From: Candidatus Poribacteria bacterium
GTDB taxonomy: Bacteria > Poribacteria > WGA-4E > PCPOR2b
DNA length: 64,000 nucleotides
Assembly: GCA_965218095.1 (NCBI GenBank)
Contig: OZ244587.1
Location: 2,592,001 to 2,656,000, forward strand
Direction of reading: 5' to 3'
In this document: positions 4,952 through 7,621 of the stretch, one piece after another
Layout: every line of letters starts with the position of its first letter
Position numbering within the stretch: position 1 is the stretch's first letter
Made by a program: the position numbers and the translations under genes
The notes under the pieces: generated by a model
Database searches by the model: none
What the model was told of the DNA's origin: nothing
Seen by the model: only the letters and a program-made list of their open reading frames with translations

Positions 4952-5682
4952 CTATCGCTCAGTTTGAATAATTCGGATAACGTAACTGCCTTTCGGAAAT
5001 TCCTTCGTGTAGGCAAACTCCCCATCGTAGTTGCGAACGTCCATCGCTGTGAAATCTTCGTCCGCAACTTGCACTTCCATCCCCTGCGGCATGAGATTAC
5101 CAATCAGCCGCTTCACATTTGGCCCGCGCTCTCCGGGCGGAATGATGAATTCTTTGATTTCCCCTGAACGCCCTTCCTCAATCGCCGTTTGGTGGTAAAG
5201 ATAGAAATCCCTGAGCAATTCCGCTCGATGCACCGCGGTTGTCATGCCTGTCACCATGGCGGCGTGAAGTGGTGACGGATACCCTCTTGGATATGGAGTG
5301 TTGTTTCGTCACCTCGTTTAATCTGGATGCCTCTCGCCGATGCCTGCTCGAAGGTCATCCCGATTGCGCCTTGAAACGTGGGCCAGCTCTCGCCGTAACC
5401 AGGATAAAAGGAATCAAAAATCTCTGCCGTGAAGTAATCGAACCCGAGCTTGTCAAACGCTTCACCGATGGCTTTGCCGTAAATCTCCCACCACCTGATC
5501 GTCTGCTCTGGAAGGTTCTTATTGATTGGCTTTGCGAGCGGCGCGAAAAAGTATGTGCTGTCCGGTCCCATCTCGTAGTCGATCCCCAGGAACATAGCCT
5601 AACACGGATTCAATGGTTGGAACGCCTTCGCGATAAACCCCGCCCGGATAAAATTCAAATCCCAAGGTCACTCTCCTCATTT
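4952..5682 (-). pseudogene. M14 zinc carboxypeptidase remnant
   Basis: Fragments FEFYPG..ESVLGY, FDSFYPGYGESWP, GMTFEQAS, FPKGSYVI in shifting frames. Confidence 0.65.
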
Positions 5683-5720: not shown

Positions 5721-5879
5721 GGTTCTGTTGACATTTGACGGATTGAACCAATCTCCGTTCCGAGAGTCTTCGACCTGATGCACCTTGAGGCGATTTCGGA
5801 CAACTGTCTTGGTTTTTGGCGGGTTGCATGATGATTACAGCGTTTGCCGAATTCGCGACAGCGAAATGTCAACAGAACC
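5721..5879. mobile_element. 159-bp MITE, non-autonomous IS5-family derivative
   Basis: Perfect 16-bp TIRs GGTTCTGTTGACATTT / AAATGTCAACAGAACC flanked by TA; identical to the ends of the element at 19103-19917. Confidence 0.9.
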
Positions 5880-5893
5880 TAATATCTAATTAT

Positions 5894-7621
5894 TAGGACT
5901 TACGCAAAATAAATAGACACAAGCGGTGAAAAGCAGTAGAATGAGCAGCATGGAGGTGAATATGGCCAAACCCACTCGACTCGACTACTGTCAGTATTTG
6001 CTCAGCAGCCCAATCAACTATACCTTAACCCATTTCGCTGACCATAGCAGAAGTTTCAGTCATGATATGATAAACCGTTATCTCGCCGGTGAGCGTATCC
6101 CGCCTCGCTTGGTATGGGAAAACGTCAAACCGCACATTGTGCAAACCCAACAGGGAAATGTCATCTTTGATGACACCATTTTGGACAAGCGCTACGCCCG
6201 GAACATCGCGTTGGTGCGTCGTCAGTATAGTGGAAACGCGAAAGCAACGGTATCGGTGTGGTGACTTGTGTCTATGTCAATCCCGCCTTAGACCGTTTCT
6301 GTACGACCCACAGGGGGATGGCAAGAGCAAATTAGATTACGTTAAGGAGATGTTAGTGCGCTTTTAAGTAACTAAATGCAATGGTGGTGCGATTCCATCT
6401 ATGATAGCTTACAATCATAAGCCTCACCTTAACTGCGTTGCCAGAAATGGCAGGGTGGGAAGCAAAGGGACATGGCGAATTCCTGAGAGGGAAAGTAGAC
6501 CCTTGAGACTGGAACGTCAGGCTGAGGATGATAAGGTTAAAATGAAAATTGAACTGATGTTTGAAGCCTCGTAACCTTAGAGCAGGTTAATCTACAAGCT
6601 AAAGCCTGTAACTAATAAAGTACAAGCATAGGGTTATGCGCTTAACATTCGCATAACCAAAGGTGATATGCTTGAAATTCATATCACTGGTAAGCCATTG
6701 CTTCGGGGCAAAGTCAGAACCTAAGTCATCTATAAATTACATTTAGTGAGATTAAAAGAGTCCCTAAGTCATCTTAAAGATGATATGGGAGAGGAAGGCA
6801 GAAAAAGCATTTTATGCAAAGCCTGCCTAGTGTCAACGTACTGAAATGTATCATAAACAGATTAAGGGAAAATGAGAGCAAATCAAGTCCCTGCTACATA
6901 CTTGGCAACTCGTCCCCATGTTCTGAACGATACAAAGTAAGTATGGCTGAGATTATCTTTTAAGTGATGCAGTAAGTTAGACAGCCTAAGACTTCAAAGC
7001 ATTATTAAGCATTACCAGTATAAGATAATCGGTAATTGGCAGGGCGAGCCGTGTGCGGTGAAAGTCGCACGCACGGTTTTGATGGGGGGAAAATTCCGTA
7101 AGGAATCTACCTATCCATACTCCCTACTAGTCTATCACAAGCAACTCTCCTTATGGATTGCTGGTATGCCACCAAAGATTTGATGATACACATTGAGCGG
7201 CTCCGAAAACATTACTATTGCCCGCTGAAATCCAATCGTCAGGTTGCTTCGAATCCCGATAAGATCGGGGGTGAAACTTTTCTGGGTCGCGTCTTCTAAC
7301 AGACGCACGGATTATGTTGTGACCAACGACTTGGCTCAAAACGACACTTCGGTTGCACAACAGGCGTGTAATTAGCGCTGGAAGATTGAGCAATTTCACC
7401 GGCAAGCCAAACAGTTGACAGGAGTTGAAGGTTGTCAATGCCGAGTGGCACGGCTTGTTCGCAACCATATTGGTTGTGCATTATTCGTTTGGATTCGGCT
7501 CGAGCACGTGGCGTATCAGACCCAGCAAACCATTTATCAGGTCAAACACGGAGTGTTGGAGGAGTATTTACGACAACAACTCAAATCTCCTGCGATTCGC
7601 ATGGAGCTTGCGTAAGTCCTA
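5894..7621 (+). mobile_element. Degenerate IS701-family element interrupted by a group II intron
   Basis: TIRs TAGGACTTACGCAA / TTGCGTAAGTCCTA; 5-bp direct repeat ATTAT at 5889-5893 and 7622-7626; transposase fragments YCQYLLSS, IFDDTILDK, MDCWYA, WKIEQFHR. Confidence 0.9.
6356..7120 (+). ncRNA. ORF-less group II intron (IIB-like), 765 nt
   Basis: 5' GTGCG; domain V GAGCCGTGTGCGGTGAAAGTCGCACGCACGGTTT; domain VI ending CTATCCATAC; EBS1 TAACAT (6643-6648) in a hairpin loop complementary to exon end ATGTTA; removal restores transposase frame EML-SLLVYHK. Confidence 0.93.

Follow-up and report, generated by a model that had tools for sequence, protein, structure and literature searches.

The window analysed here, a stretch of 64,000 nucleotides (nt) from a Candidatus Poribacteria bacterium (contig OZ244587.1, positions 2,592,001 to 2,656,000, numbered below from its first letter), contains at 6356-7120 on the forward strand a 765-nt, six-domain group II intron, GTGCG...ATAC, which is ORF-less (ORF, open reading frame). 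Judging from this intron and its relatives, we consider it highly probable that it is a non-autonomous group IIB intron that homed into the transposase gene of an insertion sequence (IS) of the IS701 family. The homing reading comes with three qualifications: the host IS is a pseudogene, the only reverse transcriptase (RT) of the assembly that could act in trans is broken, and the arrangement has precedents. By comparison with its direct precedents, those of Thermosynechococcus and RmInt1, an ORF-less intron homing into an IS is established biology. What appears to go beyond precedent is a duplicated, alternately used hairpin for exon-binding site 1 (EBS1), together with the occurrence of one ORF-less lineage across genera.

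The covariance-model search that the initial annotation had proposed as a check gave a match of Rfam RF00029 (Intron_gpII, domains V-VI) to 7044-7120 (E 5.3e-11; 67 bits, with a gathering score of 40) and a weak match of group-II-D1D4-7 to 6400-6490 (35.6 bits, threshold 34). At the Rfam gathering thresholds the whole 64-kb window has two matches, both within the intron. We aligned 14 ORF-less copies, namely the window intron, four others from its own genome (G000; 6.35 Mb, one contig, estimated completeness 93.87%) and nine from five related genomes. RNAalifold returned a six-domain wheel of 174 pairs for this alignment; with the alpha-alpha' interaction added there were 180 pairs, with standard pairing in 96.7% of 2514 cells and compensatory changes on both sides in 97 of the 180. 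None of 500 column shuffles reached any of five pairing measures, and when the partners were slid by one to three columns as a control, pairing fell to 35-42%. Domains I-IV were mapped in this way, with covariation in 31 helices, and the intron is laid out as follows:

6356-7120 (+): ORF-less group IIB intron, with 5' GTGCG at 6356 and 3' AC at 7119-7120 (Rfam matches; consensus structure of 14 relatives)
6361-6758 (+): domain I (helix map)
6361-6367/6752-6758 (+): outer closing stem I(i) of domain I, CTTTTAA/TTAAAAG (helix map)
6371-6380/6738-6747 (+): inner stem I(ii) of domain I (helix map)
6761-6790 (+): domain II, a short hairpin TCCC.../...GGGA (covariation structure)
6796-6828 (+): domain III, core helix AGGCAG/CTGCCT (compensatory changes in 5 of 6 pairs)
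6832-7040 (+): domain IV, about 209 nt, without an RT ORF (ORF lists)
7046-7079 (+): domain V, 34 nt, AGC triad at 7047-7049, GAAA loop (Rfam; 14 pairs, 100% paired)
7082-7118 (+): domain VI, with the bulged branch-point A7113, eighth base from the 3' end (Rfam; structure)

The GTGCG start, the canonical domain V and the domain VI ending in AC had all been read from the letters by the initial annotation, and they lie where it had placed them. It had also taken ACTAAATG/CATTTAGT (6371-6378/6740-6747) for the closing helix of domain I; this helix is real and covaries, as part of a stem with compensatory changes in 7 of its 10 pairs, but that stem is the inner one, I(ii), and an outer stem also exists. 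The alpha-alpha' interaction joins GCTTAC at 6407-6412 to GTAAGC at 6690-6695 and is 100% paired, with compensatory changes in 2 of 6 pairs, and A7113 is unpaired between alignment pairs 831:859 and 832:857. At columns uniform in the other 13 copies the window intron has two private changes, both of which preserve pairing (G-U to G-C and U-A to U-G); since, in addition, domain V, A7113 and alpha-alpha' are intact, the ribozyme looks undamaged. Domain IV contains a conserved Shine-Dalgarno-like AAGGGA followed by the ATG (6872) of a 22-codon remnant ORF at 6872-6940, already noted initially, which is the ORF lying wholly inside the domain; the longest overlapping it has 49 amino acids (aa). The claim that domain IV holds no RT also stands, as the ORF lists contain no RT ORF in the intron and searches with RVT_1 and GIIM gave no match in the window region. 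Positions 6356-7120 therefore appear, from sequence and predicted structure, to be a structurally intact group II intron with RNA of the IIB1/IIB2 type whose own intron-encoded protein (IEP) has been lost.

Recognition of the exons was surveyed in 33 introns, each read against the exons that flank it; 13 of them belong to G000 and 20, all ORF-less, to the relatives G014, G017, G018, G021, G022 and G023. Many of the latter 20 are sister copies, so that the counts below are not counts of independent events, and 16 different EBS2 sequences are included. In the window the exon-binding (EBS) and intron-binding (IBS) sites outside the EBS1 hairpin are these:

6342-6355 (+): 5' exon sites, with IBS2a T6342, IBS2 TAAGG 6343-6347, spacer AG and IBS1 ATGTTA 6350-6355
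6572-6579 (+): EBS2 loop strand, TAA then CCTTA, with EBS2a A6573 and EBS2 6575-6579
6711 (+): EBS3 A6711, just 3' of the ID(iv) helix, pairing with IBS3 T7121 (covariation)
7121-7130 (+): start of the 3' exon, TCCCTACTAG, with IBS3 T7121 (intron-free IS copies)

The EBS1 that had been proposed for exon ATGTTA is present: TAACAT at 6643-6648, in the loop of GGTTATGCG/CGCATAACC, pairs with 6350-6355 at all six positions by Watson-Crick rules. The proposed EBS2, CCTTAG against TTAAGG, was correctly located, but the register kept throughout the family is 5 bp (CCTTA/TAAGG), and T6342 pairs with A6573 and not with G6580. In this register CCTTA at 6575-6579 pairs 5/5 with TAAGG at 6343-6347 in the window copy, and EBS2/IBS2 pairing (exon positions -13 to -9) is 5/5 in 27 of the 33 introns, 4/5 in three and 3/5 or less in three. 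EBS2a, the central one of the three linker bases that precede EBS2, forms a Watson-Crick pair with exon position -14 in 30 of 33; A-T (A6573-T6342 in the window), T-A, C-G and G-C pairs all occur. The EBS3 column pairs with the first base of the 3' exon in 28 of 32 introns, including C-G in c469 and U-A in five (c4389 is omitted because an IS interrupts its domain I). All four pairings, EBS1 included, covary over 32-33 copies. The geometry of EBS2 and EBS2a matches that of IIB1/IIB2 introns and EBS3 is placed as in IIB introns, unlike the IIA arrangement, in which delta lies next to EBS1; a register of -14, -13 to -9 and -6 to -1 is given as the IIB1/IIB2 rule (PMC8643678). In IIB1/IIB2 introns the EBS2a-IBS2a pair is described as required for integration into DNA and not for splicing (PMC8643678), so its presence here supports an RT-dependent entry.

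The intron lies inside a decayed IS, of which the following features were delimited:

5894-7621 (+): host IS, probably of the IS701 family, decayed, with ends TAGGACTTACGC.../...GCGTAAGTCCTA and ATTAT on both flanks (inverted ends; copy alignment)
7251-7260 (+): GAATCCCGAT, the single remaining repeat copy that marks a 143-nt deletion (alignment with copies IS_A, IS_B and c944)

The terminal inverted repeats, TAGGACTTACGC (5894) and GCGTAAGTCCTA (7621), are common to other copies of the element, and ATTAT on the two flanks is the target duplication. Its N-terminal transposase ORF in the window matches DDE_5 with an E-value of 0.0088, below the cut-off. A relative of the IS elsewhere in the genome (L134; 72-77% identical) matches NF049921, transpos_IS701_2, in two pieces (E 4.8e-62, 210 bits, and 2.1e-28, 99.6 bits); as its gene is split, neither piece reaches the whole-protein cut-off of 250 bits. 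L134 reads QEMLSLIVYHKQL through the point of insertion, and the window exons, once joined, read ...KEML^SLLVYHKQL (the caret here and below marks the insertion point). The statement that excision restores the transposase frame is thus right locally, where the join matches L134, but the gene is broken elsewhere, in the window and in the close copies alike: frame breaks upstream and downstream are common to the window IS and to IS_A, IS_B and c944. The window IS also lacks 143 nt that other copies have between two GAATCCCGAT direct repeats, which looks like a repeat-mediated deletion. Because of the shared frame breaks and the 143-nt deletion the transposase is a pseudogene with or without the intron, and splicing cannot restore a working transposase.

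Intron-free copies of this IS show the uninterrupted site. Two of them read ATGTTA^TCCCTACTAG and then continue into a nested 842-bp IS; it had been laid down in advance that intron-free copies should join at ATGTTA^TCCCTA, and these two do. The ligated exons of the window copy would read ATGTTA^TCCCTACTAGTCTATC, the continuation TCTATC separating them from the intron-free copies, which have the nested IS there. Moreover, the 6.35-Mb genome has four instances of the 14-nt target T-TAAGG-NN-ATGTTA, each in a copy of this IS; two of these sites are occupied and two empty, which bears out the initial proposal of a non-autonomous ribozyme using a multicopy IS as its homing site. In the second occupied IS copy (G000 1927321-1928299) intron positions 1-515 are identical to the window intron (515/515), up to a 1253-bp IS that cuts the intron at position 515, while the adjoining IS DNA has 5 differences in 464 positions. 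A hand calculation gives a probability of about 0.024 for all five to lie in the IS portion, so the comparison weakly favours the view that the intron spread later from one IS copy to another over duplication of the two together. A 99% identical 3' intron fragment (positions 389-765) is also found at G000:C1:4935585-4935961 (L004), in a different 3' context; on its 5' side it abuts the end of another IS-like ORF.

A search of the genome for further copies and for an RT-encoding relative, also suggested initially, found both, but the RT ORF that it found is broken. The 765-nt query has 35 blastn matches in G000 and RF00029 has 23 matches over the cut-off; from these regions 13 full-length copies starting with GTGYG were delimited, 715-2452 nt long and each at a different site. 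The closest relative of the window intron, c5526, is 90-96% identical and has the same ORF-less form, with the 1253-bp IS in its domain IV. None of the longer copies is an autonomous intron. Others besides c5526 carry an IS of about 940 bp (c707 and c5863) or the 842-bp IS in domain I (c4389), c1598 has its RT deleted except for a C-terminal remnant, and c3601 and c4515 have a 900-nt domain IV. The 2452-nt copy c598 (G000:C1:598220-600671; L005, L038), whose ribozyme ends are 86-92% identical to the window intron, is the only group II intron of the genome with an RT-X-HNH reading frame. Searches of the whole of G000 with Pfam RVT_1 (PF00078) and GIIM (PF08388) matched only this locus, besides a Drt4 gene. 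The c598 protein is 54-60% identical to an intact 579-aa homologue from G014, and its ORF contains an in-frame TGA and a +2 (CA) frameshift between ...GTP and QGG...; accordingly, tblastn with the 579-aa protein finds residues 1-250 in one frame, with the stop, and 248-577 in another. Elsewhere in G000 that search gave only the C-terminal remnant of c1598 and a 33-residue piece. By these searches, an intact intron RT/maturase appears to be absent from the G000 assembly. Among group II RTs of the PDB, the c598 RT is closest to 6me0_C (E 1.9e-57; others 1.5e-13 or weaker). The structures 6ME0 and 6MEC are cited for Thermosynechococcus Th.e.I3 (T.el4h), a IIB1 intron with a chloroplast-like 1 RT (PMC8643678), and the RT of the nearest ORF-bearing relative would accordingly belong to the chloroplast-like lineage. 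The Drt4 gene, the only other RT found, encodes an intact 507-aa antiviral RT (L136:737-2257, G000:C1:1094736-1096256; NF041749, 505 bits).

The feature that sets this family apart is found in domain I. ID3 ends in two tandem copies of the EBS1 hairpin in 11 of the 13 G000 introns and in two from G022 (G022a and G022b); each hairpin has a stem of 8-9 bp and a 9-nt loop of the form YU-NNNNNN-U. The other 20 of the 33 introns surveyed have a single EBS1 hairpin. So does L059, a distant relative that belongs to another phylum and the only one of four RT-bearing introns from outside phyla for which parsing gave matching EBS1 and EBS2. EcI5 and Th.e.I3/T.el4h are likewise not known to have more than one EBS1 hairpin each. 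In the window the pair is arranged as follows:

6632-6658 (+): hairpin A, GGTTATGCG, loop CTTAACATT, CGCATAACC, with EBS1 TAACAT at 6643-6648 (exon match 6/6)
6662-6688 (+): hairpin B, the tandem duplicate, GGTGATATG, loop CTTGAAATT, CATATCACT, with a guide-like TGAAAT at 6673-6678

For the 13 two-hairpin introns, we compared the central six bases of each loop, in register, with the last six bases of the intron's own 5' exon. The match is 6/6 in loop A for five introns (the window intron, c598, c707, c4515 and G022a) and 6/6 in loop B for another five (c5526, c469, c1598, c5863 and c3601), and for three (c267, c4389 and G022b) it is at most 5/6 in either loop. As a control, every loop was compared with the exons of the other introns, and 6/6 was reached in 2 of 308 comparisons. 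The window intron thus matches its exon through loop A and its closest relative, c5526, through loop B. The same holds for c3601 and c4515, which are 90% identical and have identical loops but occupy sites that match B (c3601) and A (c4515). Both hairpins are likewise present in the intact, RT-encoding G014 intron, with an exon match (GTTACC/GGTAAC) in loop B when read by eye, and across the copies the stems of both hairpins are kept by compensatory changes.

The simplest reading of these matches is that either loop can serve as EBS1. With the balance falling just short of even, both hairpins may be functional guides; to the same tentative degree, the duplicated EBS1 may make these introns bispecific, with either loop docking at the active site and one RNA splicing from, and retrohoming into, two different IBS1 sequences. 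If that is true, the spare loop could drift towards new targets while splicing at the present site was kept, and such built-in target switching would explain the radiation of the lineage over many IS targets. A duplicate guide hairpin used alternately would be a simple natural route to a new target specificity, and it could possibly be put to use in targetron design, with two programmable guides per ribozyme. A full-text literature search, with the bacterial group II intron database and paper supplements outside its scope, returned no description of a duplicated EBS1. The one match for an 'alternative' EBS1 concerns an alternative IBS1 in RmInt1 (PMC4238363).

To place the lineage we searched 41 genomes, G000 and 40 relatives, of which 22 have a match. 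Within the window's own family the matches cover 19 of 24 other genomes and span several genera. Full-length ORF-less copies of about 710-750 nt are present in G014, G017, G018, G021, G022 and G023. Thirteen of the 14 aligned copies, from five genomes of one family, have the same ORF-less domain IV, including ...AAGGGAAAATGAG(C/A)GCAA..., the Shine-Dalgarno-like AAGGGA and the ATG of the remnant ORF, and related ORF-less copies occur in a sixth genome. An RT-bearing parent with this domain IV was looked for, and its start, AAGGGAAAATGAG, was found in none of the RT-bearing introns of the 13 fetched loci. Three subfamilies have three IS-derived targets. That of the window occupies the IS701-family transposase gene, and a second (c4426, G022d, G014b and G018a) occupies ...AAGTGCG^TAA(C/G)TCCTA, which resembles an IS701 terminal repeat. 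Members of the large g4 subfamily (L140-L142 and L158-L171, in G014, G017, G022 and G023; G000 examples at 3336739 and 708986) always lie directly after AACCYAAGTTGCTAG, the 15 nt with which an IS of about 940 bp begins; AACCYAAGTTGCTAG is repeated 110-164 times per genome in four relatives and 72 times in G000, and its reversed control 0-9 times.

Among five relatives searched for the group II RT/maturase, G017, G022 and G014 have matches, and none was found in G018, though ORF-less copies are present there. In G023, which is a single contig, the only match of the RT/maturase model is a fragment scoring 31 bits and containing a stop, and six of its ORF-less copies (L140 and L158-L162) are 98.3-100% identical at different sites. 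We considered whether the g4 copies of G023 multiply inside a transposing miniature inverted-repeat transposable element (MITE) and found no support for this: 14 copies were checked, and the 1.5 kb downstream of each contained no inverted partner repeat. In genomes like G023 an RT encoded outside introns may mobilise the ORF-less copies. That an ORF-less lineage has spread, also into genomes where searches gave no intact intron RT, has a bearing on the persistence of non-autonomous retroelements. It also bears on how a shared apparatus for splicing and mobility evolves, the model usually put forward for the origin of spliceosomal introns. A separate observation on target sites is that those of c469, c1598, c5863, c598 and G021a (L142) resemble a ribosome-binding site followed by a start codon, for example AAAGGAGAAGATT^ATG and TAAGGAGATAATCATG^, and the IBS2 sequences of several copies are often like AGGAG or AAGGAG. 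Insertion between the ribosome-binding site and the start codon of real genes was not accepted, as the ORFs downstream in G000 have only 17-74 codons.

The course of events that we propose is that the intron would have entered by reverse splicing into double-stranded DNA and reverse transcription (retrohoming), guided by four RNA-DNA pairings (EBS1, EBS2, EBS2a and EBS3) to a 14-nt target found only in one IS701-family IS. The RT/maturase would have been supplied in trans by a related ORF-containing intron of the c598 type. Loop A would be the working guide at the window site, and loop B in sister copies. Behind this would stand an old ORF-less lineage with one domain IV that radiated through the bacterial family, its subfamilies with readable targets homing into IS sequences. 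Several points weigh against this reading. Splicing of the window intron is predicted from sequence and structure, and since the host IS is a pseudogene there is no selection for splicing by way of host-gene function, so that the intron is possibly a very young relic. Not every copy is at a perfect site, as 3 of the 33 introns lack the EBS2a pair and 6 have imperfect EBS2/IBS2 pairing. The siblings are decaying, with an IS in c5526, c707, c5863 and c4389 and the RT deleted in c1598. Finally, it is possible that an RT lies on a plasmid or in an unassembled part of this 93.87% complete genome, and the identical intron in two IS copies could also stem from gene conversion.

That the two IS-borne copies arose by transposition or duplication of an intron-bearing IS, or by gene conversion, and not by retrohoming, seems unlikely to us. 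Both introns do sit at the identical position of the same IS, in a genome full of IS-driven rearrangements, such as the 1253-bp insertion that cuts the second copy at position 515. Joint duplication is opposed by the distribution of differences (0/515 in the intron, 5/464 in the adjoining IS) and by the existence of empty copies with the exact target; furthermore, no uninterrupted transposase frame was seen in the window or in the close copies, which makes autonomous transposition unlikely. The gene-conversion variant is compatible with all three of these observations.

The remaining alternatives concern the present state of the intron. Our preferred reading, retrohoming followed by loss of the helper, implies that the window intron is most likely stranded, that is, immobile now, barring an RT outside the assembly, because the only resident RT gene, c598, has the TGA and the +2 frameshift. 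That it still splices and retrohomes, through an RT outside the assembled chromosome (on a plasmid, in an unassembled repeat or in co-resident strains) or through read-through of c598, we hold to be improbable. The identity of the second copy (100%), the mere two private and pair-preserving changes of the window copy, the genome completeness of 93.87% and the parallel of G023, with its near-identical copies and no group II RT found in the assembly, speak for continued activity; the disrupted state of the sole RT locus of this kind in G000 and the two matching target sites that are still empty speak against it. The opposite possibility, that a recently inserted ribozyme no longer folds or splices and is decaying in a dead IS, is also doubtful, if slightly less so. 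It would agree with the lack of selection from the host gene, the absence of a functional RT in G000 and the IS insertions that disrupt sibling copies, but the AGC triad and GAAA loop of domain V, the branch-point A, alpha-alpha' and EBS1, EBS2, EBS2a and EBS3 are all intact, and disruptive private substitutions were not found in the window copy.

RNA libraries also bear on activity. The window stretch was found in four metatranscriptome runs of one study and in six further runs whose kind is not on record; one run of the latter sort and three RNA runs were compared with it, all as assembled contigs, which cannot show absence. Sponge-metatranscriptome contigs of 659 nt, from two runs of one study, cover 6417-7075 with 0-1 differences. 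This would favour an active intron, but RNA libraries may contain DNA, so that such contigs are not certain proof of transcription, and they are silent on the junction. The joint 6355 to 7121 is not among the 15 joints listed out of 16, which, in assembled contigs, allows no inference on splicing. One RNA contig, 161 nt long, matches up to exactly 6355 and runs on into sequence off the stretch, as would be expected from the intron-free IS copies that contain the nested IS.

A review describes ORF-less bacterial group II introns as rare and as found, in nearly every case, together with related introns that encode an IEP (PMC4424553); one survey counts 888 of 13,041 bacterial introns without an IEP (PMC8919778). 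Homing into an IS is documented for family F4 of T. elongatus (PMC2882425) and for RmInt1 (PMC4238363), and in this respect the homing reading by itself contributes a further example, this one in a sponge-associated bacterium. A close parallel is TeI3 of Thermosynechococcus elongatus, which is likewise of IIB type with chloroplast-like RTs and many copies per genome (PMC2882425), and which is classed as IIB1/CL1 (PMC8643678). There too an ORF-less lineage arose by deletion in domain IV and then proliferated, with good EBS/IBS pairing at its sites; families have different targets, F4 homing into the insertion element ISEL1, and IS elements are inserted in some introns (PMC2882425). Unlike in our genome, where the only resident IEP is broken, T. 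elongatus has six potentially active 'driver' IEPs (PMC2882425). Furthermore, the host here, which we had first expected to be a cyanobacterium, is not one by a single test, a search for Photo_RC that gave no match, and the lineage spans several genera of one family. The duplication of the EBS1 stem-loop, seen in 11 of 13 G000 copies, was not met in the available portion of the TeI3 account (PMC2882425).

RmInt1 in ISRm2011-2 of Sinorhizobium meliloti resembles the window intron in having its homing site in the transposase gene of a multicopy IS and in interrupting the transposase with intron stop codons (PMC4238363). It differs in being a class D/IIB3 intron with its own IEP in a functional host IS, where splicing gates transposition (PMC4238363), whereas the present intron is ORF-less, with recognition of the IIB1/IIB2 type, and its IS701-family host is a pseudogene. 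C.te.I1 of Clostridium tetani is also ORF-less, in a genome without a functional IEP gene, but it is a single, independent and robustly self-splicing intron (PMC4424553), while here a whole family has an IEP that was recently broken. Finally, the IIB1 introns EcI5 and Th.e.I3/T.el4h have the same arrangement of IBS2a at -14, a 5-bp IBS2 at -13 to -9 and a 6-nt IBS1, and their EBS2a is likewise the middle base of a 3-nt linker, followed by A (PMC8643678); these introns, in contrast, encode their own RT.

Two neighbouring elements of the window may be added. Fifteen nt upstream of the left end of the IS701-family element, at 5721-5879, there is a MITE-like element of about 160 bp with the inverted ends GGTTCTGTTGACATTTG/CGAAATGTCAACAGAACC. 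The same ends bound the 842-bp IS, which has inserted into the two intron-free IS701 copies and into domain I of c4389, and which has 147 blastn matches of at least 200 nt in the genome. On the reverse strand, at 4952-5595, two ORFs, 101 and 114 aa long, lie side by side with an overlap of a few bases and look like one gene split by a frameshift.

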